Shown: positions 23,627 to 36,611 of the stretch, piece by piece
Layout: each line of letters begins with the position of its first letter
How positions within the stretch are numbered: the first letter of the stretch is position 1
DNA from: an uncultured Candidatus Saccharibacteria bacterium
GTDB lineage: Bacteria; Patescibacteriota; Doudnabacteria; UBA920
Length of the DNA: 64,000 bases
Reading direction: 5' to 3'
NCBI GenBank assembly: GCA_964561085.1
Contig: CAZLNP010000001.1
Span: 10,213 to 74,212 of the forward strand
The notes under the pieces: generated by a model
Databases searched by the model: none
The model's input: the letters and a program-made list of their open reading frames with translations, nothing else
Told to the model about the DNA's origin: nothing
Translations under genes and position numbers: made by a program

Positions 23627-23640
23627 TTTCAGCGGTTTTT
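23616..23640 (+). terminator. Rho-independent terminator of topA
   Basis: ccgctgaa-taat-ttcagcgg followed by T6. Confidence 0.7.
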
Positions 23641-24296
23641 TAATCATCAACAATAAAGTACCTTTTCCTTAGGGTATACAAAATCAATATGCCGACAAGC
23701 AAAGGGATGACTCCAAATAATAGTCCCCCATTACTAAAAGCTATTCCAGCTAAGTAAAACAAAGGTAGACCAATCAATAAATACGAAAATAAAGTGCCCA
23801 TTACAAAGTGAGTGAAAGTAATGTTAGTGATTCCGGCGGCATAGCTAACCATTTCTGAAATCGGTCCACCAAATACACGCATAATGATTAAAGCCTCTAA
23901 CTCATTTCGAGGATTAAATTTTATCCTTTGAGATTGCTTCAAGCCACTTTCACCAAATACTTTTAAAATTACTCGAGGGCCGTATATCCTAGCCAACCAG
24001 AATACCAAACACGTTCCAATAAATGCTCCTACCATATCTACTAACAGCGCTGGCAACCAACCGATAACTGGTATGGCTCCTACTGTAAAGACTAGGCCAG
24101 GCAATGGCGGCCAAATAATTCCAACAATCTTAATGGCTATTAAAATTAAACAAAACCAAACTAAATTTTGCCCTGACCACGTAAGGAGCGACTGGAAACT
24201 ATCAGTTCTAGAAAAAATTCCATACGCTACAATTGTAACAATAAAAGCCACGGCAATTAGCACTATAAACTTATATTGTTTCAGTAAAGCCTTCAT
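23640..24296 (-). CDS. TVP38/TMEM64 (DedA-related) family membrane protein
   Basis: Multi-TM protein with DedA/TVP38-like pattern. Confidence 0.65.
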   Translation of the reverse strand: MKALLKQYKFIVLIAVAFIVTIVAYGIFSRTDSFQSLLTWSGQNLVWFCLILIAIKIVGIIWPPLPGLVFTVGAIPVIGWLPALLVDMVGAFIGTCLVFWLARIYGPRVILKVFGESGLKQSQRIKFNPRNELEALIIMRVFGGPISEMVSYAAGITNITFTHFVMGTLFSYLLIGLPLFYLAGIAFSNGGLLFGVIPLLVGILILYTLRKRYFIVDD

Positions 24297-24318
24297 AAGT
24301 TTATGATACCACGCCCCC

Positions 24319-24347
24319 TTGAAATTATCTGATAAATGCGCTAAAAT
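24319..24347 (+). promoter_or_regulatory. Sigma70-like promoter for tRNA-Lys (TTGAAA-17-TAAAAT)
   Basis: Hexamers with 17-nt spacer about 28 nt upstream of the tRNA 5' end. Confidence 0.5.
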
Positions 24348-24360
24348 TGTTGAGTATTTG

Positions 24361-26034
24361 TTAAACCATACTCTTGGGTCTGTAGCTCAGTTGGTAGAGC
24401 AGTGGCCTTTTAAGCCATTTGTCGCGGGTTCGAATCCCGCCGGACCCACCAAATGAGTCTTGCTCGAATATAGGATTGCCTTTAGTTTTATTACGGCATA
24501 AGTAATCCAACGGTTCTTGCAAGACAGCACGGACAATTTGTCCATCACGCATATACAATTCTTTGAATAACGTTCGAGCCAAGAGAGCCTTCATTTGAGG
24601 CTCTTTTGCGTTTTGGTAGGCATACGCGCAACTAACCGTTAGTGATAGTGCAATCTCAACAGTACGGACGACTCCCGCAATTTTACTTTCAACTTTACCG
24701 AGTTCATCAGTTAACTTTGTATCTTCCATTCCTAATTCAGCCATAACCGTATGGTACAAATCCATATCTCCAGAGGTGTTATTTTCTTTATCAACTAACT
24801 GAAGAACTAAGTTTTTCTTCTGCCGTTTAATGTTCGCTACTTTCCCTAGTATATCCTTACGGGCTTTTTCATAGATAACATGTTCATCAGAAAACAATCC
24901 CCTGACTTTTGCTTGAAGCTTTTCAGTAGTAGATACAGGCAGGTTGATAGTTTGAAGAAGTTTCTCAAACTGATTTTCATACTCAGACTCATGATGGTAC
25001 TTCTGACTACAAGGTACTTTCCTTTTCTTGATAGCCTTTAGACAACGAAGATACCGATAGATGTTCTTTTTACGAGTTACCTGCTCATCACTAGTCATTT
25101 TACTACTGCACTCATCGCAGTATGAGATGCCTTTAAGGATAGAAAACAAACGCCACTTCCGACTTGAACTACTAGAGCGTGATGAGCATACCGCTTGGGC
25201 TTTATCGAATAACGCACGATCTAAAAATAGTTCGTGGTTACCATTTTCATTTACAACTCCGTCCCATATAATATGCCCAATATAGAATTTGTCTTGGAGA
25301 ATGCGAGCCAAATAGCTAGCTTGCAAAACACTGCGAGTCTGACCTTTAAATAAACGAAGTGGAAACCCTTCATCAATAAGCTGTTCAGCTAAATCACGAG
25401 TTGACCAGTTGCCAGTAGCATACAGTTCATATGCCCTAGTGACCCATTTAGCCTCTGTCCAGTCTACTTCTATCCACGCCTTAACTTTACCAGTAGACGC
25501 TTTCTCCTGAACATTTTTATATCCATAAGGGGCTGTCCTTGGCCAACCCCCAGCTTTCGCTTTCTGTATTAGATTGTTCTTAACTCGGCGACCATGTTGA
25601 GCAGAATAGAATTCTGCTAGTGAAGATAGGATTCCTTCCAACATTTGACCCTCAGGGCTGTCATCAATACCTTCTGTGGCGGAAATTAATTTAACATTGT
25701 GTTTACGCAATGCGACTTTAATAAGTGAGAGGTCATCACGATTGCGAGCTAGGCGGCTTAGGTCGTAAACAGTGATTGCCTGAACAGACTTATCTTTTTC
25801 ACAACGATTTAGCATATCCAGCAGTGCTGCACGATCCATTGTGCGAGCACTCAGTCCTGCATCTGTGTAAATGTCTGTCTCAAGGTTAAATGTGTAGCCA
25901 TTTTGCTCTGCGTATTCTGTACATTTAGCTTGCTGTGTTGGGAGAGCAATGCCTTTTTCGGCTTGCTGGTCGGTTGATACCCGTAGATAAATGAGGGTAA
26001 TACCTTTTGATTGATTTATTGATTGTTCGTTCAT
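24361..26034 (-). CDS. Large serine recombinase (resolvase catalytic domain + recombinase domain + zinc ribbon + coiled coil). The annotated 3' end reads antisense through the whole tRNA-Lys, so the true C-terminus is probably shorter or artefactually extended
   Basis: N-terminal LIYLRVSTDQQ catalytic serine motif, recombinase domain, Cys cluster YCDECSSK...CLKAIKKRKVPC; C-terminal GIRTRD is the typical antisense-tRNA translation. Confidence 0.85.
   Translation of the reverse strand: MNEQSINQSKGITLIYLRVSTDQQAEKGIALPTQQAKCTEYAEQNGYTFNLETDIYTDAGLSARTMDRAALLDMLNRCEKDKSVQAITVYDLSRLARNRDDLSLIKVALRKHNVKLISATEGIDDSPEGQMLEGILSSLAEFYSAQHGRRVKNNLIQKAKAGGWPRTAPYGYKNVQEKASTGKVKAWIEVDWTEAKWVTRAYELYATGNWSTRDLAEQLIDEGFPLRLFKGQTRSVLQASYLARILQDKFYIGHIIWDGVVNENGNHELFLDRALFDKAQAVCSSRSSSSSRKWRLFSILKGISYCDECSSKMTSDEQVTRKKNIYRYLRCLKAIKKRKVPCSQKYHHESEYENQFEKLLQTINLPVSTTEKLQAKVRGLFSDEHVIYEKARKDILGKVANIKRQKKNLVLQLVDKENNTSGDMDLYHTVMAELGMEDTKLTDELGKVESKIAGVVRTVEIALSLTVSCAYAYQNAKEPQMKALLARTLFKELYMRDGQIVRAVLQEPLDYLCRNKTKGNPIFEQDSFGGSGGIRTRDKWLKRPLLYQLSYRPKSMV
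24376..24451 (+). tRNA. tRNA-Lys (anticodon UUU), encoded CCA
   Basis: Hand-folded cloverleaf: acceptor GGGTCTG/CGGACCC, D-arm GCTC/GAGC, anticodon stem GTGGC/GCCAT with loop CTTTTAA, T-arm GCGGG-TTCGAAT-CCCGC, 3' CCA. Confidence 0.9.
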
Positions 26035-26219
26035 AATAGTTACTGTTAATTATTTGGATAATAAAACCCTGCCTAGGACTCGGTGTCGCAGCCGAGGTGC
26101 TGTAAACTTTGCCTAGGTAGGGCTTTGGGATTCTATGTCGCAGATAATTGTTACTTTAATTATATCATACGACCTGCCTCTACCAGAGTCTGGTCTTTGC
26201 TGACAATGCTGTCTTGCTG
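26035..26219. promoter_or_regulatory. Repeat-containing regulatory region upstream of the recombinase gene
   Basis: Direct repeats tgcctagg...tgtcgcag (x2) and ttgctgacaa / ttgctgtcaa motifs. Confidence 0.35.
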
Positions 26220-27773
26220 TCAAAAAGGAACTTCACTTACGCTTATATCCTCATTTTCATTACTTAAAGGTTCAACGCTCGGCGTGACAGCAAGGGTAGT
26301 AATTTGAATGTTGCGCAAACCATCTCCCCGATCACGGGTTACTAAGATTCCTCGCTCTCGCAGATTAGGAATGACTTCTTCGAGTTTTCGCCATAGCCAG
26401 TTTGCTTGCTTAGGCAAAACTTTTTGTTTGTCCAACCCTATTCCATCAGCTACATCTTTTAGTTCAGTTAAAAGTGCAGTTGGAGTTCCCTGCCACTCAG
26501 TATGAGTTTTCATAAACTGCATTATCATAAAGGCTACGCTAGATGTTTCAATTACCTCATCATGTTGAAGTTGGCGATTAGCTTTAAGAGCAGAAATGAA
26601 AACACTTTTACCAACCCCTAGTACTTCACTCGCTCCTGCACCAAACTGTGCAAATCCTGCCATGCGATACTGTTCTAAACCTTCAACTTTAGGATTATCT
26701 TGTCGGTACTTCATAGTCTGTGCTATTACAGTAAACAATGCGCCAAGCAAACGAGGGCGAGCTTCTTCAAATCGTGCGAATAGTTTTTGCTCATCTTCAT
26801 AGTTTTCAGGGGGTTGTAGATTCACTATCAAAGCACGGTCTAATATGTCTGGTTTATCTATTGGCAAGTTAATGCCGTTCATACCAAGCACTCGCTGAAA
26901 GGAATAGATAATGTCGTCGTCATTTGTAAATAACTCTCGCTTACTAAACCCTTCTCCAGTTACTACACGGCATAGCAAGTCTGAAAAATCAGATTTTATT
27001 GGACTCAAGTTATCTAGTGGCAGAAAGTAGTTATGACTGGCTTGTTGAATGAACTCATTTAAATCTCGCTGTGGACCAACTGTTTCAAGCATTGAGGGGT
27101 CAAGTAAACGCCGCAATAACTTAAACAATGTGGTCTTTCGTGAACCCTTCTCACCTTTAACGACAAGTATAGGATGTGGGAAGCCTTGAATAAGAGCAGT
27201 TGCAAGCCATATTAGTAATAGCAATCGCTCTTTCTGTTCGGCTGGCTCTGGAATGTAGTCAAAGACTTCTTCCAACTTTCCGCCCTCTATGGGTGTAACC
27301 TGTGCCTTTTGATGTGCAAACCGATAGAATAAGATTGGAGGCTTTTCTACTACTGTCCAACCATTCTCGGTAATTTTGACTGCCTTGCCATCACCCAAGT
27401 CATACCACAGCTCGTTACCTAAGTTAGCTGCTCGAACATGAAGTTCTAATTGTTTGCCCTCGTGCAATGCATGTCCTTCTAGAGTTCGTACTGCGGTTTC
27501 TATAATCGCCGAGTTAATGGGCTTACCTAGCGACTTCCAGCCTAAATGCGATAGCCATGACTTAAATTCACGATTGCGGAGTCGCAAGATTTTACCACCA
27601 TTCCCCTCCATCGCAATGAACGCTGAACCAAACTGGTCGTGAAATAGAACAGATTCGCCTTTTAGTACTTTATTGATAAGAACAGTTGTTTGACCTTTAT
27701 CTTCCTCATTTAAGATTTCACTTTGAGCTGAATCTTGTACAGCCGTATTATCTCCGATAGGAGTTTCTTCCAT
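26220..27773 (-). CDS. Replication-associated P-loop NTPase, P4-alpha/D5-like SF3 helicase-primase C-terminal type
   Basis: Walker A VVKGEKGSRKTTL in a D5/P4-primase-helicase-like context; 517 aa. Confidence 0.55.
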   Translation of the reverse strand: MEETPIGDNTAVQDSAQSEILNEEDKGQTTVLINKVLKGESVLFHDQFGSAFIAMEGNGGKILRLRNREFKSWLSHLGWKSLGKPINSAIIETAVRTLEGHALHEGKQLELHVRAANLGNELWYDLGDGKAVKITENGWTVVEKPPILFYRFAHQKAQVTPIEGGKLEEVFDYIPEPAEQKERLLLLIWLATALIQGFPHPILVVKGEKGSRKTTLFKLLRRLLDPSMLETVGPQRDLNEFIQQASHNYFLPLDNLSPIKSDFSDLLCRVVTGEGFSKRELFTNDDDIIYSFQRVLGMNGINLPIDKPDILDRALIVNLQPPENYEDEQKLFARFEEARPRLLGALFTVIAQTMKYRQDNPKVEGLEQYRMAGFAQFGAGASEVLGVGKSVFISALKANRQLQHDEVIETSSVAFMIMQFMKTHTEWQGTPTALLTELKDVADGIGLDKQKVLPKQANWLWRKLEEVIPNLRERGILVTRDRGDGLRNIQITTLAVTPSVEPLSNENEDISVSEVPF

Positions 27774-27925
27774 TATTGTTGCCTTTCTTTGTTAGCAAGT
27801 TGTTCCCCAGCATGAAGCTGTCGAGCAATAGTTGCTAATGCCAATGCCAAACAATCCACAAGTCGATTTTCTTCGGCTTGCATATCCATATCATTAGTTT
27901 CGATTGTTTGAAGATTCTCTGACAT
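27773..27925 (-). CDS. Small ORF (50 aa) translationally coupled (TAATG overlap) to the helicase-like gene
   Basis: MSENLQTIETNDMDMQAEENRLVDCLALALATIARQLHAGEQLANKERQQ; stop overlaps the next start codon; no strong RBS. Confidence 0.3.
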   Translation of the reverse strand: MSENLQTIETNDMDMQAEENRLVDCLALALATIARQLHAGEQLANKERQQ

Positions 27926-28032
27926 TGATTAAATTTAATAAATCCGCTAGGGGCTAGGTAGTTCCATGAGCTAGACGGCTCTACCCAGCCCTTAACGGAC
28001 TGTTTGCTCATGGAATTTTGCCCAACAAAAAA

Positions 28033-28066
28033 GCTATAGACTTTTCTATAGCTTATTGGACTTTTA
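28033..28066 (-). terminator. Terminator after the 243-aa island gene
   Basis: agctataga-cttt-tctatagct perfect hairpin followed on the minus strand by a T-run. Confidence 0.55.
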
Positions 28067-28091
28067 ATGGCGTGTATAAGAATTTTGTGTA

Positions 28092-28823
28092 CTACACTTG
28101 TTTGCGTCTGAGATTCTCTTTTGAGACGATTTTACCAACACTTCCCTCGTCAACTTTCTGTTTAAGTTCAGTAGGTAACTGACGCAGTATTTCCTTACCT
28201 GGTAAATGTCTATTCTGATAAATCAAATCATCTCGTCTAACATTTAATGGTTTGCGTTTACGAAACTTGCCAATTTTAATTTCAGGTTTACTGTACTTCC
28301 TTTTCAATGGCATGATTTCTGTAGGGTTAACCTTTTGAACATAGGCAAGGATGTCTCTCAGTGAAGCGTATGGGCTAACTAATATGCTTATTGGAAACTG
28401 TTCACTAAGTTCTACGGTATTCATGCTGTGAGTTTCAGCTACTCGACATAAAGCAAATTTGTTTTTATAAAGTGGCAGTGGCAATACATCATCAAAAAAT
28501 ATGACAGGATGTATCATTTCGTTCCACTCTTTTGGGTCTAAATTGAACTTGCGACATATCGTGTCAACTTCCTTAAGCAAAGCTGATAGCGCGGTATGGT
28601 CATTACCCAAATATTCAATAAGCCATTTTTCTTGGGCACTATCATTATTGAAACCCTTTGCAGGAATACCCAACTTCCTTCTAAGCTTAAGAATTTCACT
28701 TCGAAAACGATCGCTTCTTACCAAGGCTTCAAAGTGATGAACTAACTTCTTGTGCGCTTGGGTAGTATGAAGTTTTTTGGCATCTCGAAATGTGGGAGTA
28801 TCAGCATTGTGAGTGATTTTCAT
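28092..28823 (-). CDS. Hypothetical protein (243 aa), basic C-terminus
   Basis: Clean ORF in the island; no recognisable domain. Confidence 0.45.
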   Translation of the reverse strand: MKITHNADTPTFRDAKKLHTTQAHKKLVHHFEALVRSDRFRSEILKLRRKLGIPAKGFNNDSAQEKWLIEYLGNDHTALSALLKEVDTICRKFNLDPKEWNEMIHPVIFFDDVLPLPLYKNKFALCRVAETHSMNTVELSEQFPISILVSPYASLRDILAYVQKVNPTEIMPLKRKYSKPEIKIGKFRKRKPLNVRRDDLIYQNRHLPGKEILRQLPTELKQKVDEGSVGKIVSKENLRRKQV

Positions 28824-28970
28824 TGCTCATGGAATCAATTACATGCCTAAAGTATAACAAAATCAGTATAAATAACCACTCTTTACTTAACAAGTTCAGA
28901 GTTCAAAAAAACCAACAATTTTATCCTCACAACAAGAGAGAAGGGGCCTAAAACAGAATATGCCGAAATC

Positions 28971-29606
28971 CTACGACATCTTAATCTTTGCTTGGGATAA
29001 CTTGTCATAAGTCTGTTCAGCTGCCTCAGCCCCTAGCCATTTCTGTTCAGCCACTATCCAACGCAGGAACGGCTTAGCGACCTTGTTGCCATAGACCTTA
29101 CGTTTGAAGTGTTTTAACATACCATCGACTTTCATAGCCCGATTCATACGATATGCCATCTCAGCTAATACTCCGCCTCTGCGATTGATGCTCTGCAACT
29201 CATAGCTGAGTTCCAGGCAGGAGCGACAGGAGAAGTAATTAGGCTTGCGGTCAGGGCGAAGATACAACTTACTACGTAAACTCCCGCACATAACGCAAAA
29301 GAAGAATGGCTTGTTTCCAAAGTGAGTCTCGCCAGTCAAGATAGTGATTGCTTGAGTTTGGGCAATTCCTTTATATGGGTAAAAGACTTGAACCTTAAAT
29401 GGATCGCCATCAATAACCTTGTAGCCTATGAGCAGAGTATCGTACTGGCTAGATATATAGGCTTTACCAGACTTAGGCTCCCCCTCTTTGTTTGGGTGGA
29501 GCAGATTACGACTTAGAGAGCCAATAGATAATGAAAAGCACTCCTCCACAGTCATTTTGGGATAGAGTTTTTGCTTGTTTAATTGATTGAAGAATTCTTG
29601 TTCCAT
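28971..29606 (-). CDS. Hypothetical protein (211 aa) with Cys4 zinc-ribbon-like motif
   Basis: CVMCGS...CRSC cysteine pairs. Confidence 0.45.
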   Translation of the reverse strand: MEQEFFNQLNKQKLYPKMTVEECFSLSIGSLSRNLLHPNKEGEPKSGKAYISSQYDTLLIGYKVIDGDPFKVQVFYPYKGIAQTQAITILTGETHFGNKPFFFCVMCGSLRSKLYLRPDRKPNYFSCRSCLELSYELQSINRRGGVLAEMAYRMNRAMKVDGMLKHFKRKVYGNKVAKPFLRWIVAEQKWLGAEAAEQTYDKLSQAKIKMS

Positions 29607-29845
29607 ACCTTAATTTTAAATCAAGTCAGCAGGACAGTATAGACGGCATAATTTGAACATCTTATGCAGAGGTTTCCCTACACAGGACTCCTGAGGATAT
29701 AGAAAGGATTGTTTACCAACCACTCCCCACCCACCCCCTTCATACTCTCTGTGTTCCTAATACAATTCCTCTTTAATGAATTGCAATTCAAACCGCCACC
29801 CACCTGTGAGTGGCTTGTTAATCATTAAACGAAAGGGTTACTCAA

Positions 29846-30061
29846 ATGAGCAAGAACCTAGCAGTACTAGCTGAGTTCGATAACCACGACTGTAAAAGTT
29901 CAGCTGACTCAGGATGCAATACCTGTGTCTTCTTCTCTCGAAGCAAAGTCCGTTGGAATCGTTTCTTAGAGAAGATGGACTTGGTTAGAAAGAATAGCAA
30001 GCACATTGACTCTCAGCTAATCAACCACATCATGCAACCAACACAGGAGGAAAGCCAATGA
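29846..30061 (+). CDS. Small Cys-containing protein (71 aa), first gene of a divergently transcribed island operon
   Basis: Follows a 240-nt divergent intergenic region; ATGA overlap with the next gene. Confidence 0.4.
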   Translation: MSKNLAVLAEFDNHDCKSSADSGCNTCVFFSRSKVRWNRFLEKMDLVRKNSKHIDSQLINHIMQPTQEESQ

Positions 30062-30363
30062 TTGAATTAAAAGAGATACTAGCAATCCCTAGTTCATACA
30101 GGGGTTCAGAAAAGTCTGCTGCGAAAGTCAAAGAACAGATAGCACTTAGATGGCCTAAGCTAGCAAAGGACTATGACCCTAGATTCACTACCCGCACCGC
30201 AAGGGCATGGCAAGTGATAGGTTACAGAATCAAGAAAGGTGAGAAAGCCATTAAGAGCATTACAGTAATTGAGAAGACCGATAGCAAGGGCAAAGTCATT
30301 GAAAGCTATCCTAAGGTTATTTCGCTCTTTCACATAAATCAGATCGAAAAGATGAAGATATAG
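30058..30363 (+). CDS. Possible ArdC-N (DUF1738)-like ssDNA-binding protein fragment
   Basis: RAWQVIGYRIKKGEKAI...VISLFHINQIE resembles the W.TfkQ...G..V.KGEK...vFn..Q.E core of the ArdC N-domain. Confidence 0.35.
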   Translation: MIELKEILAIPSSYRGSEKSAAKVKEQIALRWPKLAKDYDPRFTTRTARAWQVIGYRIKKGEKAIKSITVIEKTDSKGKVIESYPKVISLFHINQIEKMKI

Positions 30364-30476
30364 TACCAGATGAGACTCTGAATGTTTTTTAAAATTCCTG
30401 GCTTTATGTCGGGTTAAGCGTTTTGGTAGTGATCGTACAACAAAACTACCAACTCTAACAATTAAACTATCCATAT

Positions 30477-30833
30477 ATGGAAACAACTCAACCCCGTGTC
30501 CAGTTAAACGCATCACTTAGGTACAGCCCTACTGGAGAGCTGATTAGCCGAGACTTGCTGATTAACTTCAGAGAGGAAAGTGTGGACGAGTGCGTTAAGT
30601 TACTCGGAGACTTTAACAGGCAGTTCAACATCAATCTAGGTTTGGCAGAGCAACCACAAATTGCCTCACAAACCACGATACTGCCTGCGGACGCTCCAAG
30701 TGATTGCCCTAGGTGTCTAGTTCCTCTAATCAAAAGGAAAGTTAGTAACAGAGAAAGTGCAAGCTATGGAAAAGAGTTCTTAGGCTGTGGCAACTATGCT
30801 CGCAAGGGCTGTTTGTTCAGTCATTGGCTGTAA
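30477..30833 (+). CDS. Topoisomerase-type C4 zinc-finger (zf-C4_Topoisom-like) DNA-binding protein
   Basis: CPRCLVPLIKRK...FLGCGNYARKGC at the C-terminus. Confidence 0.5.
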   Translation: METTQPRVQLNASLRYSPTGELISRDLLINFREESVDECVKLLGDFNRQFNINLGLAEQPQIASQTTILPADAPSDCPRCLVPLIKRKVSNRESASYGKEFLGCGNYARKGCLFSHWL

Positions 30834-30926
30834 ATTAAATAGGGTTAAGTCCTCAATTGGACTATGCCCTATTTTTTTCTACACCCCATATTGCATTGGC
30901 GCTCAACCGATAAAACATAACCCTCA

Positions 30927-31610
30927 TCAAGACAAGTCTTCTTTTTCTAAATCAAACAGTACTACCTGTTTATGCTCAGGGTCGTAAAACATGTTGCTTG
31001 TCGTGACATCTTTATAATCCGCCAAGGTATCATAAACAAATCCCAGCTTTTCTGCTATTTCTTCTCGCTCTGTGTCGCTTAGGTCTTGGCTTAAGTAGTC
31101 TGCCATAACTGGTAGGTTCTCCCATTTTGCAACGAAGTAATCATTACCTTGGTTATCCGTATAACCTAACTGAGAGTCAATTAGTCGAACATCATTTCTA
31201 TCTCCTATTCGCCTTTGAGCTTCCGCAAAACTGCCCATTGCTTTATGGCCAGTACCGCGTCCTAATTCTTTCCTTACAAAATAAGTTTCACCCAAACTTG
31301 CAACTTTAAAGTTTTGTGACCAATTTCTCTTTTGAAAATATGTTATTGTTAGTCCGTTCTCTTCAACACTTGCTCCTTCAGGTTGAGATTCCAAAGTTTT
31401 AACTAATTTCAATACTTGTTTGATAATGCCAGGGCGTATATCGAGGGAAGCCTTCAATTCTGGTGTGTACGCTAAAGAGCGAGATTCAGTCTCCTTGTTA
31501 ATTAACTTATCCTCGGCATGGTTACTTAAAGAATTACAGGTCTCACAGGTTGAAGGAAAGTTGCCGTGTGGGCACATTCCATTTAGTTGCTCCGATTCTT
31601 TTTCATGCAT
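30927..31610 (-). CDS. Hypothetical protein with N-terminal Cys/His cluster and possible protein-kinase-like / phosphotransferase-like C-terminal region
   Basis: CPHGNFPSTCETC; C-terminal DVTTSNMFYDPEHKQVVLFDLE resembles the kinase-like catalytic-loop/DFG region (weak). Confidence 0.3.
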   Translation of the reverse strand: MHEKESEQLNGMCPHGNFPSTCETCNSLSNHAEDKLINKETESRSLAYTPELKASLDIRPGIIKQVLKLVKTLESQPEGASVEENGLTITYFQKRNWSQNFKVASLGETYFVRKELGRGTGHKAMGSFAEAQRRIGDRNDVRLIDSQLGYTDNQGNDYFVAKWENLPVMADYLSQDLSDTEREEIAEKLGFVYDTLADYKDVTTSNMFYDPEHKQVVLFDLEKEDLS

Positions 31611-31627
31611 ATCATTAAAATTTACTA

Positions 31628-32842
31628 TTACTTGTTATCCACGGCTTCTTTTATTTTACTCGCTAAAATTTGGCTATAACTTCTATTCTTGCCATCAATA
31701 ACTTCATCTTTTCCTATACTAACATCTGATAACTTATCTCCAAAAAAAGTACGGGCGACTTCTAATGCTTTTTGCGCATCTGCCTCAGACGCTCCATGCA
31801 TAACCACCTGATCATTGAGAGTAACACCTTGGTCAATCAAATCCTGGAATATTTTAATATCACCATTGTATCCGCTTTTCTGTAGTTCCTGCATGAAAGC
31901 TTTGAAGTTATCTGGAGCTAAGTCATGTAAATCTTTGACAGCAAAGTATGACTTATAAGTCTCTTGGCTATTATCTTTAACTCCTTCATTTACTCCAAAG
32001 AAAAGCCACGAATTAGCATCCTTAGTGCCTTGTCTAACTCTAATTCCTGGTGCGATTTGCCTATTTTCGGTACTAGCTTGCTGTCTAACTTCGTAGCTGA
32101 ATTTATTAAATTCCGCATCTAACTCTTTATCAGCTGATGCCTTTGCTTCTTTTGCCATCTTTAATACCTCCTCTACTGAAGTGCCCATCCTATTCCACGG
32201 AGCTTTTCTAAGCTGATCATCATCAATCTTTAAAGAATTGTCGATAGCATATTGCATGTAATCCTCACGGGACATTTTTGATAAATCCACTCCATTAGCT
32301 ATTGCTATTTTTGCTAATTCATAACTCGCTGGCCAGCCTACTAATTTTTTCTTATCCTCAGGAGATAATTCAGTTGTTTGAGAAGTTTCTATCTGAGTCT
32401 CAGGCTGAGGGGTTTCAGGGATAGGTATTCCCAACTCCTCACGAATAGAATTTTGTTCATTAAAATCTTGGGCTTTGCTTTCTTCTTTCTTTACTTTTGA
32501 CTCCTCTTTTTTCCAAAGCTGAGCCATTACTTTTTCTTTCCGAAGCTCTTCTTGTTTAGTCTTCTCAGGGTCAGTATACTCAGGGATAGTCCAGATATAC
32601 TCAACTGCTTCAGCGCTCATTCCTTCGTATTGGGGAGGAAGCATAACATCATCACTGTTTTCATTCGGTGACTCAGCTGGCTTTTCTTGATTCAGTCGTT
32701 TTTCTAGTGCATTACGAAAAGATTCTGGTAGACCTTCCATAGTCTTATTAATATCTTCACCGTCTTTTATGCGCTGTGCATACTCTTCAACCTTTTGGTC
32801 TCCAGGTGATAATTGTGGGGATGTCTCAAAATTTCTATCCAT
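31628..32842 (-). CDS. Acidic hypothetical protein (404 aa), Glu/Lys-rich N-terminal half
   Basis: Clean ORF; no recognisable domain. Confidence 0.45.
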   Translation of the reverse strand: MDRNFETSPQLSPGDQKVEEYAQRIKDGEDINKTMEGLPESFRNALEKRLNQEKPAESPNENSDDVMLPPQYEGMSAEAVEYIWTIPEYTDPEKTKQEELRKEKVMAQLWKKEESKVKKEESKAQDFNEQNSIREELGIPIPETPQPETQIETSQTTELSPEDKKKLVGWPASYELAKIAIANGVDLSKMSREDYMQYAIDNSLKIDDDQLRKAPWNRMGTSVEEVLKMAKEAKASADKELDAEFNKFSYEVRQQASTENRQIAPGIRVRQGTKDANSWLFFGVNEGVKDNSQETYKSYFAVKDLHDLAPDNFKAFMQELQKSGYNGDIKIFQDLIDQGVTLNDQVVMHGASEADAQKALEVARTFFGDKLSDVSIGKDEVIDGKNRSYSQILASKIKEAVDNK

Positions 32843-33031
32843 ATTTAATAGCTTAAAAATTTAAACTACCCATAGTATTACACATTTTAGAAAACTTTAT
32901 AATGTCTACCTTATCAATACTGAAATCAAAAACTAGCTACATCATTACAAATGAAAAGTGGCTTAGGTCAACCATTTTTGTTATTATATACTTAAATAGA
33001 CTCCCTTAAAAACCAAACTAAAAATAATTCT

Positions 33032-35377
33032 TTGACCAATCCTATTACTGGGCTATCATCATGGGAAGTTGCTAAAGCCCCCAAGAATATCCCCCCTCAT
33101 CATTTCACTTCTATGGAATTGGCGTTGCAAGTTGCAAAGAACCAGATCTTATCTTTTTTCTTTATCTTACTGCTTATTTCGGGGGGGTTATCTGCACTCC
33201 TTCATGAACAGATTGATTCAATTGTTTTCTTCGCTATTGCTGGTATCAATGCCGTATTAGGTTTTATCCAAGAATTCAGAGCTAATCGCAGCGCACAATT
33301 ATTGGAAAAAATGGTTGCCCATTATGTGACCGTAAGAAGAAATAGTAAAATAAAAAAAATTCCCAACATTGAATTGGTGCTAGGAGATATTGTACTGCTA
33401 AATCCTGGAGATATACTGGCCGTTGATGCTCAAGTGATTTCATCAGTTGATGCTTTTTTAGATGAATCTATGATTACGGGAGAATCACTTCCTCGTTTAG
33501 TAAATTCTAAGGAAAAAATTGGTGCGGGTGTAACAGTAGTATCGGGCAGTTTGACGGTAGAAGTAACAGCAGTAGGAAAAGATAACTCTCTAAGTCAGTA
33601 TGCGGAAAAGGTTGTAAAGTTAGAGAAAAACAGTAATTTTGAAAAGTTTATACATACCATAAGTAAAACTATACTACTAGTAACTACATTTTGCTTACTG
33701 ATTGTTTTGGTTGTTAATGTTTTGGCAACACATGGAATGGGAATTTCAGAATACATTTTATTTAGCATTTCCATGCTCATTGGGGTTGTCCCAGAATCAT
33801 TACCTCTGATAGTCACTTTAATTTTTACAAGCGAAGCGATAGCACTTTCAAAACAGCAAGTCCTAATTAAGAAGTTGTCAGCTTTGCAAAATCTAGGCTC
33901 AATGAATTATTTATTCACTGATAAAACAGGGACAATTACAGAGAATATATTGCGAGTTAAAGAGATTGTGGCTATCGATGACTCTTTGGCAAAAAATTTA
34001 ATGATAATCTCTAGCGGTAATTACGAACGAATGCCTATGGATGAAGTGTTCGATCAAGCCTTAAGGCAATATTTCGTTGCCAACAACTTACAGACTGATC
34101 GTAAAAATTCTGGCTTAGAATTAGGTTTTGAAGCCTATCAGGTATCCCGAGGGTACGCCATTCATCTCCTCCCGAATGGTGATGCAATTTTCCGAGGACA
34201 ATACGATGAGGTAATGAAGGCGTGTATTAAAACCCCTCGTCACATCGAGAAAAAGTGCCAGGAATATGAAACTCAAGGCTTGCGTGTAATAGCTATGGCT
34301 TACAGAAATAAAGATGGTATTCACATGCAAGGAATAGTGGTTTTTGAAGATCCCCTTAAGCCTGACGCAATATCGATATATAAAACTCTATCTAAATTGG
34401 GCATTGATATGAAAATAATTACCGGTGATACTATTGAAGTAGCGAGGTATATTGGGAATATCCTTAAACCTGCGAAAAATGAAAACTATGCCTTTGGCAT
34501 GAACGAATTAAAAAACACTCCTAGCCATAAATTAGACAACTACTTTATCTATGCCAAATGTAAACCTGAGCAAAAATCTTTATTGATAGATAATCATGAA
34601 TCGCGAGGTGTTGTCGGTTTCTTAGGGGAAGGAGTCAATGACGCCATGGCATTAAAACGAGCTGATATTGGCTTTGTAGTAAATAATGCGAGTGATATTG
34701 CTCGACAGGCAGGTGATGTTATTTTACTTGAAAAAAGTCTACACCCTATCATTAACGTTGTGATGCTGAGCCGTCGAGCATTCATCAAAGTCCGTACCTA
34801 TCTATTATGCACACTGACTGGAAACATAGGCACTCTTATTTCTTTGACTACAGTAGTAGTAATCTCTCAACAAATCCCTCTCTTACCGATTCAAATTTTA
34901 CTTAATAATCTACTAACTGATTTACCTCTTTTGTTTTTGTTGTCAGATAGAATCTCTGAAAATTCACTGCAACATCCTGTGAAAGACGAGATCAAAAAGT
35001 TCTTCAAAATTATCATTATCTTTGCTGCAATAAGCTCTGTTTTTGACTTTCTGTTTTTCTTTCTATTCCGTCAATTCGATATATCCGTATTACGCACTGG
35101 ATGGTTTGTGTTTAGTGTATTGGCAGAGCTAACTTTGGTTGTTTCATTGCGGTCAGAACTTTCAATTTTTAAAGCACCCCGAATTTCTACATTACTAACA
35201 ATTGCATTGGTATCGTGTTTGGCAATAGCAATAGCATTGCCTTATCTTCCCATAAAAACTATTTTCTCTTTTGTGCCACTCACAAGCCCCCAGCTAATGA
35301 TATTAGCTGGACTTACATTAGTATATCTTGGGGCTAATGAAGTGGCTAAACACATCTTTCGACGTCATCTCTTCTAA
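33032..35377 (+). CDS. Cation-transporting P-type ATPase (P2-like, Ca/Mg type) with abbreviated N-terminal domain; annotated TTG start
   Basis: DKTGTITEN phosphorylation motif, ITGES actuator motif, TGDTIEVA, GEGVNDAMALKRADIG. Confidence 0.85.
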   Translation: MTNPITGLSSWEVAKAPKNIPPHHFTSMELALQVAKNQILSFFFILLLISGGLSALLHEQIDSIVFFAIAGINAVLGFIQEFRANRSAQLLEKMVAHYVTVRRNSKIKKIPNIELVLGDIVLLNPGDILAVDAQVISSVDAFLDESMITGESLPRLVNSKEKIGAGVTVVSGSLTVEVTAVGKDNSLSQYAEKVVKLEKNSNFEKFIHTISKTILLVTTFCLLIVLVVNVLATHGMGISEYILFSISMLIGVVPESLPLIVTLIFTSEAIALSKQQVLIKKLSALQNLGSMNYLFTDKTGTITENILRVKEIVAIDDSLAKNLMIISSGNYERMPMDEVFDQALRQYFVANNLQTDRKNSGLELGFEAYQVSRGYAIHLLPNGDAIFRGQYDEVMKACIKTPRHIEKKCQEYETQGLRVIAMAYRNKDGIHMQGIVVFEDPLKPDAISIYKTLSKLGIDMKIITGDTIEVARYIGNILKPAKNENYAFGMNELKNTPSHKLDNYFIYAKCKPEQKSLLIDNHESRGVVGFLGEGVNDAMALKRADIGFVVNNASDIARQAGDVILLEKSLHPIINVVMLSRRAFIKVRTYLLCTLTGNIGTLISLTTVVVISQQIPLLPIQILLNNLLTDLPLLFLLSDRISENSLQHPVKDEIKKFFKIIIIFAAISSVFDFLFFFLFRQFDISVLRTGWFVFSVLAELTLVVSLRSELSIFKAPRISTLLTIALVSCLAIAIALPYLPIKTIFSFVPLTSPQLMILAGLTLVYLGANEVAKHIFRRHLF

Positions 35378-35681
35378 ATGAATCTCGATAATTGCTGAAG
35401 TTAACACTAAACCTCTTTTAAGATTAACTGTAAGTTCTGGAAGTAGTTCAATTTTCATGATCCCCGACAGCAAAGTCAACATAGACAGCATTTTACTAGA
35501 CCGAGTACATACTAAGCAGAAACCAACAACCCTTCCCTCTCCAACATCTTGTAGCAAGTATCAAAGTTGGCTACCTGTATTGGCTTCAGAATATGCACTA
35601 GATTCTTAAAATACTTGAGCATTGGGGTCTTCAGCCCACCAATAAAACACCCGACTGGGTGTTTTATGTTAATATTTAAAT

Positions 35682-36611
35682 ATGAAATTAGAAACTTTTA
35701 ATAATTTTTTAGACTACGAATTACTAGATACTGGTAACGGCAACCGCCTTGAACAATGGGGCAACATCCGGTTAAAGCGTCCTGACCCTCAAATAATTTG
35801 GAAGTCTAGCTTACCTTCCCGCGAATGGGATGCTGCCAACGCAGATTTCATTGGTGCCGGAGAAAGAGGTCGTTGGATGAAAAAATCTACCATCCCTGCA
35901 AAGTGGGATGTATATTTTCGTCCTGATGTAAAACTAGTTGCTAAACTTACACCTTTTAAACACACTGGTATTTTTGCAGAGCAGGCAGGCAACTGGGAAT
36001 GGATGTCTGAAATTGTGGGACAAGCTAATAACACGGCTGGTGGGCCTTTAAAAATTCTAAATTTATTCGCCTACACTGGTGGTGCTACGATGGTACTCAC
36101 TCGCCTTGGTCATAAGGTCACTCATGTTGATGCTAGCAAACCCGCAATTGCTTGGGCCAAAGAAAATCAATTTGCAAACAAGTTCGCTCCAGACAGCATC
36201 CGCTGGATTTTAGACGACGCGGTGAAGTTTGTTCAACGCGAATTGAATCGCGGCGAAAAATATGACGGGATCATTATGGATCCTCCAGCGTTCGGACACT
36301 CCCCTTCAGGAAAGACCTGGAAGTTTAACCGTGACTTACCAAATTTATTAGAGCAAAGTGTGCAGCTACTTTCAGACAACGCGAAGTTTTTGTTAATCAA
36401 CGGGTACGCAACAAACTCTTCTGCCATCTCTCTAGGAAATATTTTAGAAGATACTATTTCAGCCAGACCTGAATTGGGTGGTTCAGTAGAGTTCGGGGAA
36501 CTTTGTCTAAAACATAAGATTGGAAATAAAAAATCCGCCTCATCTAAAAATGACGAAGCGGACGATGGCCGAATGATATCAACCGGAATTTTTGCCAGGT
36601 GGCAAAACTAA
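35682..36611 (+). CDS. Class I SAM-dependent RNA methyltransferase (RlmI/RlmK-like)
   Basis: Motif I LNLFAYTGGATM, DAS..., motif IV DPPAFG. Confidence 0.7.
   Translation: MKLETFNNFLDYELLDTGNGNRLEQWGNIRLKRPDPQIIWKSSLPSREWDAANADFIGAGERGRWMKKSTIPAKWDVYFRPDVKLVAKLTPFKHTGIFAEQAGNWEWMSEIVGQANNTAGGPLKILNLFAYTGGATMVLTRLGHKVTHVDASKPAIAWAKENQFANKFAPDSIRWILDDAVKFVQRELNRGEKYDGIIMDPPAFGHSPSGKTWKFNRDLPNLLEQSVQLLSDNAKFLLINGYATNSSAISLGNILEDTISARPELGGSVEFGELCLKHKIGNKKSASSKNDEADDGRMISTGIFARWQN

Follow-up and report, generated by a model that had tools for sequence, protein, structure and literature searches.

What kind of element lies next to a host tRNA gene when a serine recombinase reads straight into that tRNA, and where does such an element begin and end? 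These questions are raised by a locus in a 64,000-nt stretch of DNA (hereafter the window, meaning the stretch at its full length) from an uncultured Candidatus Saccharibacteria bacterium (GTDB lineage Bacteria; Patescibacteriota; Doudnabacteria; UBA920). A preliminary interpretation made without database searches (the sequence-only reading) had described, at positions 24319-32900, an integrated plasmid- or satellite-like element at tRNA-Lys that encodes a large serine recombinase and a helicase-primase-like protein. Comparison with related loci (L0xx and L1xx; integrase homologue proteins are denoted P0xxx) leads us to propose that positions 24453-35642 are very probably an 11.2-kb Saccharibacteria integrative element that inserted itself at the 3' end of tRNA-Lys and carries its attachment site, attP, inside the open reading frame (ORF) of its own integrase.

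Empty sites delimit an 11.2-kb insertion at tRNA-Lys

The integration target, tRNA-Lys(UUU) at 24376..24451 on the + strand, is the one tRNA of the window (ARAGORN and Rfam; 77.6 bits for the Rfam tRNA model). A protein search with the topA product encoded on its left retrieved Saccharibacteria metagenome-assembled genomes with 79-83% protein identity, in agreement with the earlier guess, based on the flanking genes, that the host belongs to the candidate phyla radiation (CPR). Four of these relatives (L003, L005, L006 and L011) share the gene order topA, tRNA-Lys and a homologue of window ORF 35682-36611, which encodes an RlmI/K-like (rRNA-)methyltransferase, and the distance from tRNA-Lys to the methyltransferase gene is about 50-90 nt. 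Because tRNA-Lys lies directly next to the methyltransferase gene in all four, the 11.2 kb at 24453-35642 can be recognized as an insertion in the window. In the alignment, the tRNA 3' end and terminator hairpin of the empty sites correspond to the window sequence that starts at 35635 (CCCACCAATAAAACACCCGACTGGGTGTTTTATGTTAATAT). The hairpin that a terminator scan places at 35642..35667 (+), in host DNA just beyond the element, aligns with the hairpin found directly 3' of tRNA-Lys in the empty-site relatives; it is the native tRNA-Lys terminator, which the insertion has moved 11.2 kb away, and together with the 8-bp repeat described next it marks attR.

The left junction reads GGACCCACCAA, followed immediately by ATGAGTC. 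The sole repeat at the element ends is the 8-mer CCCACCAA, present at 24445..24452 (attL core, made up of the final 7 nt of the tRNA and 1 nt) and, identically, at 35635..35642 (attR core). So short a repeat is expected for a serine recombinase, and the absence of a long direct repeat had been noted before. The crossover dinucleotide should lie somewhere within these 8 bp. When the ends are joined, the reconstructed attP junction reads ...GAGCAAGACTCATTTGGTGGGCTGAAGACCCCAATG... / ...TTCGAGCAAGACTCATTTGGTGGGCTGAAGACCCCAATGCTC..., and the empty attB reads ...GGACCCACCAATAAAACACCCGACTGGGTG... / ...CCGGACCCACCAATAAAACACCCGACTGGGTG.... The restriction of attP/attB identity to CCCACCAA would leave the tRNA sequence unchanged; the tRNA is intact after insertion, with a genome-encoded CCA end. 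Junctions were read in four integrated relatives (L082, L085, L086 and L087), and in each the junction is formed by TGGTGGG; in L088, this sequence lies a few bases upstream of it. The sequence shared by attL and attR amounts to 8 bp in the window; in L194 and L193, the shared stretch measures 9 bp and about 4 bp, respectively. Given the right boundary at 35642, both a P-type ATPase gene and a 40-codon segment of the integrase gene fall inside the element, and the end formerly set at 32900 (8.6 kb) proves to be about 2.7 kb short. Two other proposals were set aside: carriage of the tRNA by the element, given that the tRNA adjoins topA in the empty-site relatives, and a dyad in the reconstructed attP, GAGCA(29 nt)TGCTC, which was spotted by eye and is too weak to place the crossover.

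The site itself varies among relatives. In L004 (14224-14299, empty) and L087 (7217-7292, occupied), the orientation of tRNA-Lys with respect to topA and the methyltransferase gene is reversed, which could be a trace of a past recombinase-mediated inversion at the site. A gene for a VTT/DedA-family membrane protein located between topA and tRNA-Lys in the window (23640-24296, -) is present in L002, L004 and L082 and absent from L003, L005, L006, L011 and L086. One further contig, L001 (Logan SRR12762285, 1030 nt), encodes an identical VTT protein and stops inside tRNA-Lys; the assembly may have broken off there at the element junction, perhaps because the sample holds a mix of occupied and empty sites.

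Recent transfer of a conserved core with exchangeable cargo

The same element core is found in L082/L083, where the host topA is 90% identical, and in L086. The topA of the L086 host shows 81% protein and 75% DNA identity to that of the window, as against 94-94.5% DNA identity for the element core (window 24316-27942 and 28878-30843) and 100% identity of the integrase over 554 residues. The contrast between a 94% identical core and a 75% identical host topA points to recent horizontal transfer between species. To the right of window position 30843, L086 carries other cargo, namely an S49/ClpP-like peptidase, a DUF3761 protein, an HTH protein and a hydrolase. The differences between L086 and the window thus separate a conserved core, comprising the integrase, a structured spacer, the helicase, a 50-amino-acid (aa) ORF, a C4 zinc-ribbon protein and three small ORFs, from exchangeable cargo, represented here by a 243-aa orphan, two further orphans and the P-type ATPase. 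The element of L087, with a 71% identical integrase, also resides at tRNA-Lys beside the methyltransferase gene.

These comparisons bear on the possibility that the locus is no mobile element at all, being either a conserved piece of ordinary chromosome or a remnant that died long ago. The G+C content of the element is barely different from that of the flanks (0.395 vs 0.409), as would be expected under such an interpretation. Nevertheless, it is extremely improbable in view of the empty sites in four relatives, the core that is 94% identical in a host with a 75% identical backbone, and the fact that all ORFs are intact and the integrase frame can be reconstituted. Related genomes that had the same genes in the same place with core-like conservation and lacked an empty site would have spoken for a chromosomal origin; what we found instead is four empty sites and a core more identical than the backbone. 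Tetranucleotide deviation, measured against the remainder of the window, reaches z=2-3.8 across 24-36 kb, is highest over 31-36 kb and peaks at the ATPase (z=3.8).

attP lies inside the integrase gene, and integration detaches its tail

The large serine recombinase encoded by the element reads toward tRNA-Lys, as originally described, and this identification is supported both by Pfam and by the predicted fold. Its body (24453..26034, -; residues 1-~528) contains the catalytic Ser20 in YLRVSTDQQ and matches the Pfam families Resolvase (PF00239, 9.3e-31, residues 14-164), Recombinase (PF07508, 3e-8) and Zn_ribbon_recom (PF13408, 3.5e-8), all above cut-offs, as well as PHROG 95 'integrase' (3e-81). 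A Foldseek search initiated with the AlphaFold model, which contains long helices at 382-415 and 421-475, retrieved complexes of serine integrases with att sites (best 1e-16), as well as Bxb1, PhiC31 and the Listeria LI integrase. By its domain matches and modelled fold, the enzyme qualifies as a large serine recombinase with resolvase, recombinase and zinc-ribbon domains and a coiled-coil insertion, and attP x attB recombination is its predicted activity.

In the integrated state, the integrase ORF encompasses 557 aa (24361-26034, -) and runs through the antisense strand of the tRNA, its last 29 codons being antisense to the complete tRNA gene, as had been noticed from the sequence. An exact-protein look-up with this 557-aa product found no identical entry. 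If the right end of the element (to 35642) is joined with the left end (from 24453), the integrase frame remains open for 40 more codons, giving a protein of 570 aa. The detached 3' exon that contributes these codons, LKTPMLKYFKNLVHILKPIQVANFDTCYKMLEREGLLVSA, is located at 35515..35634 (-), with the stop at 35512-35514. The junction falls at about residue 531, which in the model is past all canonical domains and the last beta-hairpin. Judging from the joined ends, attP lies inside the integrase reading frame, and this assigns positions to the 3' end of the gene and to the attachment site, both of which the sequence-only reading had left unresolved.

Independent support for the native status of this tail comes from the homologues. 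A similar tail, in place of a tRNA-like peptide, terminates 9 of 120 homologous integrases (e.g., P0125, ...SILEYIKSLPQRMSKYQAVLWENCYNRLQAVALA). A hidden Markov model (HMM) was built exclusively from the un-split tails of other proteins; of all 1821 six-frame segments of the window, it matched the predicted exon best (-, 35515-35697; E=0.019). An alignment of the un-split tails with the reconstructed window protein reveals a CYxxL motif whose C, Y and L do not vary, and the tail is modelled by AlphaFold (AF2) as two helices (pLDDT 70-87). On this evidence, the antisense-tRNA tail of the integrated copy arises incidentally, through integration, and takes the place of a native tail that is conserved.

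Split integrases in other members of the clade

Two distant relatives of the element show the same arrangement. In L193, whose integrase (50% identical) adjoins tRNA-Arg, the tail HMM locates an exon (...LPQLVSPIQRINFENCYKSLEENGLLK, E=8e-7) on the same strand, 7.5 kb upstream and thus at the far end of the element. The integrase of L194 is 49% identical and adjoins tRNA-Val; here the tail exon (E=0.003) is located 7.8 kb upstream, again on the same strand and at the far end, and the 9-bp repeat TAATGGGCG is present at both junctions. The tail joins the body in frame at both loci. An in-frame integrase split is present in three independent elements (the window, L193 and L194), in each of which attP lies in the integrase ORF, the gene is partitioned, joining of the ends restores it, and the tail is homologous to those of un-split homologues. 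An un-split integrase gene is found in L084, mid-contig and without a tRNA nearby; this distant relative also carries a TrwB-like coupling protein.

Among the 120 homologues, 74 (about 60%) end with a peptide of the kind that a translated antisense T-arm would give; in 27 the frame is xRTx and in 47 it is G[FLIVM]EP, with a Streptomyces RefSeq protein among the latter. Applied to 120 control slices, the two patterns hit 7 and 2 of them, 9 at most in total. Accordingly, reading into a tRNA gene is a property of the clade and not a chance frame. Many 'recombinase family proteins' of Actinobacteria and other phyla (P0172-P0240, e.g., P0219 from Streptomyces sp. V3I8) end with ...G[FLI]EP...; the annotated C-termini of such recombinases are probably integration artefacts that derive from antisense tRNA T-arms.

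Literature searches returned no report of attP inside a serine integrase ORF, although the searched library is incomplete and novelty is unproven. A profile scan of IMG/VR (2.9 million viral contigs) yielded only distant integrases, with at most about 30% identity across most of their length; weaker matches reach 36% identity over the short N-terminal domain.

Individual loci of the clade have peculiarities of their own. In L085 (11641-11851, -), a group I intron (Rfam RF00028, 53 bits) sits within the targeted tRNA, which is why ARAGORN misses this tRNA and why the integrase ORF runs into the intron. The cargo of L194 (1840-7582) is defence-like and includes an OLD-family nuclease (AAA_15/TOPRIM), an SNase-domain protein and a radical SAM/SPASM enzyme.

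What the detachable tail might do

We propose the following scheme. The element's own large serine recombinase would insert it at the 3' end of tRNA-Lys(UUU), an event that would strand the tail exon at the element's other end and let the integrase body read into the antisense tRNA, so that the integrated copy would make only a tail-less or tRNA-tailed integrase. Excision by the same integrase would regenerate the circle and, with it, the full-length 570-aa integrase with its two-helix CYxxL tail. Replication of the circle may involve the D5-like helicase of the element, probably together with a host primase or another partner, as has been proposed for staphylococcal cassette chromosome mec (SCCmec) elements and Staphylococcus aureus pathogenicity islands (SaPIs). 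The presence or absence of the tail might change the activity, stability or direction of the integrase. As the integrated copy loses the tail, the conserved tail would be present only when the element is free, that is, when integration is needed; if the tail alters the behaviour of the integrase, recombinase function would depend on the integration state.

This reasoning suggests a further idea that we advance tentatively: detachment of the tail might serve as a state sensor, a switch of directionality or commitment, for a large clade of tRNA-targeting serine integrases. It is possible, albeit doubtful, that the full-length enzyme made from the circle integrates and that the tail-less enzyme is inactive, unstable or excision-competent. 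We are equally hesitant about the corollary that directionality might be set by gene splitting, instead of or beside a directionality factor.

A simpler account, which we regard as a serious contender although short of probable, is neutral compaction, whereby the tail is dispensable, the integrated integrase works alike and a conventional directionality factor sets direction. The position of the junction at about residue 531, after all canonical domains and the last beta-hairpin, is compatible with this account; so is the range of replacement tails, which vary from 0 to about 60 residues, so that the integrase body evidently tolerates anything, and several small unassigned ORFs of the element could be directionality factors. 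Neutrality is harder to reconcile with the invariance of CYxxL across homologues that are only 25-55% identical and are associated with different tRNAs, and with the prediction that the tail folds. The motif is about 90 bp from the att core, and the att sites of large serine recombinases measure ~40-50 bp (PMC12286644); CYxxL is therefore probably outside attP, and its conservation is unlikely to be a constraint on the DNA site.

Several observations weigh against the proposal of a self-inserting element with a split integrase. Taken alone, the match of the tail HMM in the window is modest (E=0.019). Both ends have been seen in one copy only of this particular element, the right end of the near-identical L086 copy falling beyond its 10-kb flank, and an exact search of IMG/VR with the attP junction gave no match, no circular junction sequence being recovered. 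The overlap between attP and the ORF could, as discussed above, be neutral compaction. Finally, no primase, origin or recombination directionality factor was identified in the element, so that autonomous replication and excision are putative.

A D5-like helicase and the satellite alternative

The second large core gene (26220..27773, -) encodes a 517-aa protein for which no above-threshold family was found in Pfam, PHROGs, NCBIfam or PADLOC; the sub-threshold matches are to generic P-loop proteins only, and a sequence-profile search of the PDB likewise yielded only generic P-loops. An AF2 model built from 30 homologues (pLDDT 84.6, pTM 0.82) was more informative: Foldseek matched it to the African swine fever virus PrimPol (1e-10), the SaPI5 primase-helicase (1e-9) and SCCmec Cch (5dgk, 8e-9), as well as to NrS-1, PriRep1 and monkeypox virus (MPXV) E5, with E-values of the matches shown ranging from 1e-10 to 1e-7. 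The best-superposing match is SaPI5 (7ola; TMq 0.51, TMt 0.59). Residues G207, G210, K213, D254, N255 and R313 are invariant in the 30 homologues, and the Walker A and Walker B motifs and an arginine finger were placed by inspection of these positions. In terms of the modelled fold, and at that level only, the protein can be assigned to D5/P4-type superfamily 3 (SF3) helicases, as a helicase module alone. The earlier assignment to helicase-primases of the P4/D5 type holds for the helicase at the fold level and fails for the primase, given that the protein has no primase domain and no match to Pfam D5_N, Pox_D5 or PriCT at E<=0.1 (nor any in PHROG or NCBIfam).

No fused or adjacent primase was found for the window helicase. 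Its homologues are numerous, and the longer ones (700-900 aa) have an N-terminal Prim-Pol, PriCT_1, Toprim, DnaG zinc-finger or DUF3854 domain. In three related loci, a separate gene for a 200-250-aa protein with a DnaG-type zinc ribbon (Zn_ribbon_DnaG) is located just upstream of the helicase gene (L085 7610-8215, L087 3261-3866, L088 7446-8189), and the window and L086 have a 50-aa ORF in its place; this pattern suggests loss of a primase-related partner in the window/L086 lineage. A metagenome scan with the helicase turned up two distant loci only.

The resemblance to mobile-element helicases raises the question whether the element is a phage satellite of the P4, SaPI or phage-inducible chromosomal island (PICI) kind, induced and packaged by a helper, with the helicase as replication initiator. 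Its size of 11 kb, its terminally placed integrase gene and its want of virion genes fit such a satellite, as do the match of the helicase model to SaPI5 (TMq 0.51, TMt 0.59) and to other D5-like helicases of mobile elements and the occurrence of the helicase family in viral contigs of IMG/VR, at <=36% identity. We nonetheless consider it unlikely. In none of the ORFs do PHROGs and Pfam reveal a function in capsid remodelling or packaging, a small terminase, a repressor/antirepressor or anything else indicative of helper hijacking, although the orphans could hide such genes; none of the 2.9 million viral contigs holds a relative of the integrase clade that exceeds about 30% identity; and P-type ATPase cargo is more typical of genomic islands and plasmids. 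Between a satellite and an integrative plasmid, sequence alone cannot decide.

Other classes of mobile elements are a poorer fit. A prophage is not indicated at 11.2 kb and with no capsid, portal, terminase, tail or lysis genes in the PHROGs scan, in which the integrase is the only match, consistent with the initial observation that virion and lysis genes are missing. Nor is an integrative mobilizable or conjugative element, for no relaxase or origin of transfer (oriT), coupling protein or type IV secretion system was detected in the window element. Scans with Pfam, PHROGs, NCBIfam and PADLOC detected no virion, lysis, relaxase or defence genes in the element, and gave nothing for 8 of its 10 ORFs.

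A structured spacer and an embedded candidate terminator

Conservation extends to the 170-185-nt spacer that separates the helicase stop from the start of the integrase gene, even though the integrases of the elements concerned are only 55-71% identical. Alignments and covariance analysis delineate a structured element within it at 26055..26146 (-), with counterparts at L082 2680-2771, L085 9886-9985, L087 5523-5622 and L088 9894-9983. On the integrase-sense strand, the spacer comprises an extended -10-like box TATGATATAAT upstream, two copies of CTGCGACA, an inner hairpin and a 15-bp outer stem, which is followed by TTTTATTAT, a T-run, about 25 nt before the integrase ATG. The direct repeats previously reported in 26035-26219 do exist as repeated words; they turn out to be stem arms (with a palindromic CCTAGG core) and loop motifs. 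In five distinct sequences, 92.6% of the pair cells are standard-paired, compared with 27-57% when the partners are slid, and changes on both sides are seen in 12 of the 20 pairs, a value reached by none of 500 shuffles; with so few sequences, this covariation is suggestive and not conclusive. The covariance model matches only within the helicase-integrase subclade, never 5' of related integrases without the helicase, and has no instances beyond the six source loci or near-copies. A scan of the window with Rfam found nothing except the tRNA and thus no family for this structure.

The structure could be an integrase leader or attenuator, or else a replication origin or initiation site. That it is an origin or single-strand initiation site bound by the D5-like helicase, and not a leader RNA, is quite conceivable, if somewhat less than an even prospect: the structure is found only in elements with this helicase and contains a repeated 8-mer, CTGCGACA, and in SaPI and P4 the origin adjoins the replication gene. 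On the other hand, the T-run 3' of the stem and the conserved extended -10-like box 5' of it have the layout of a transcribed leader with a terminator, and no AT-rich unwinding region flanked by iterons is seen at the spacer.

A second hairpin with a T-run, in the tRNA sense, is embedded in the integrase coding sequence at 24580..24608 (+), opposite the codons for AKEPQMKALLA and about 130 nt downstream of the tRNA; the terminator scan calls it strong. Hairpin and T-run are kept, with altered stem bases, in L087, L085 and L088 and are absent from other subclades. It is plausible that this candidate terminator replaces the displaced terminator of the tRNA; a further effect would be to keep antisense transcripts from running far into the integrase gene.

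Other core genes and cargo

The ORFs listed in the sequence-only reading are all found where it placed them. The 50-aa ORF (27773..27925, -) overlaps the helicase start and is recovered by tblastn in L086 (86% identity) and L085 (53% over 30 aa). The 243-aa orphan (28092..28823, -) is followed by a terminator-like hairpin at 28031-28054 that sets it off, as the sequence-only reading had it. It occupies a variable slot: the corresponding slot of L086 contains a 232-aa gene without a match to the orphan, and window 27943-28877 finds nothing there.

The zinc-ribbon orphan can be upheld as a core gene (28971..29606, -) for a 211-aa C4 zinc-ribbon protein with an invariant CxxC...CxxC arrangement (C104, C107, C127 and C130) and homologues in L085, L087 and L088. 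The family comprises at least 154 cluster representatives at E<=1e-3 (phmmer). Pfam scans of 60 members and a PDB profile search yielded no assignment, and a GATA-finger match was dismissed (E=0.016).

The divergent cassette of three genes (29846..30833, +; 71, 101 and 118 aa) belongs to the conserved core, its proteins showing 100% aa identity in L086 and 26-43% in L085. The ArdC-N-like character attributed to one of them could not be substantiated, the 101-aa ORF having no Pfam support at E<=0.1. The 118-aa protein, thought to be of the topoisomerase zf-C4 type, has a weak BLASTP match to the zinc ribbons of the window's own TopA (E=0.018) but none in Pfam.

Two orphan ORFs (30927..32842, -; 227 and 404 aa), already noted as completing the gene set, are variable cargo, being absent from the otherwise near-identical element of L086. 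By eye, the 227-aa orphan contains a putative kinase-like motif, ...NMFYDPEHKQVVLFDLE. The 781-aa P-type ATPase (33032..35377, +) lies between attL and attR and is absent from the loci of the empty-site relatives, so that it is cargo inside the element and not part of the flank. It passes NCBIfam TIGR01494 (221 bits; cut-off 62); its best equivalog is of the Mg type (330 bits, below cut-off), and it is closest to type III Mg2+/H+ pumps.

Relation to known systems and implications

A serine-recombinase island with a replicative helicase is of an ordinary kind; the tRNA target and the split integrase are unusual and apparently widespread. In gene content, the closest parallels are SCCmec and the SaPI/P4 satellites. 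SCCmec (CcrAB with Cch/Cch2) is a non-viral island with large serine recombinases, an adjoining D5/MCM-like SF3 helicase and variable cargo that inserts at the 3' end of a conserved host gene. Unlike SCCmec, the present element targets a tRNA and not rlmH, has one recombinase and not two, and carries attP inside an ORF; the host phylum differs as well, and no sequence-level homology was detected (Pfam is negative). Satellites of the SaPI/P4 kind resemble it in being small, in encoding a D5-like helicase as well as an integrase at one end, and in having no virion genes, but here the integrase is a serine and not a tyrosine recombinase, the helicase is without a primase domain, no packaging, interference or repressor genes were found in the element, and no helper is known.

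The integrases PhiC31, Bxb1, A118/LI and TP901-1 have the same domain architecture as the enzyme of the element and probably share with it the use of short att sites; to our knowledge, their targets are protein-coding or intergenic and their attP sites lie outside the integrase ORF. Dependence of a protein C-terminus on the integration state is familiar from the mycobacteriophages BPs and Brujita, in which attP lies inside the repressor gene, integration alters the repressor C-terminus, and with it the dependence of the protein's properties on the integration state arises, and the integrase is a tyrosine recombinase. In the element, by contrast, the recombinase itself and not a repressor is split, with no known degradation tag. 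A still closer precedent for the split is provided by the SSV-type tyrosine integrases of archaea, which have attP inside int and integrate into tRNA genes such that int is split (PMC8371274). Common to the two are attP in the integrase ORF, the tRNA target, the partition of int to both ends and its restoration on excision. The enzyme of the element is, however, a serine recombinase, and the comparison with SSV is one of analogy only; the hosts are bacteria (CPR and others) and not archaea, and only the last ~40 codons are detached, leaving a catalytic and DNA-binding body that is intact and could be made in the integrated state.

Serine integrases have been thought to avoid tRNA genes: in a 2020 survey, their use of tRNA genes was found in 14 of 297 elements and was described as previously unreported and rare, with the comment that 'experimental proof will be required' (PMC7192596). 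Here, a broad clade extending into Actinobacteria reads into tRNA genes, and many C-termini of database 'recombinases' would be antisense-tRNA artefacts of integration, which calls for caution in annotation. The integrase and its att sites of about 50 bp at a conserved tRNA make a candidate genetic tool. Mobile elements of Saccharibacteria and the CPR at large are barely characterized, and this one comes with base-pair boundaries, empty sites and evidence of recent transfer. If it is true that the tail controls the activity or direction of the integrase, this would be a new and simple way for a recombinase to sense its own integration state, one that would also be of practical interest because serine integrases are widely used engineering tools.

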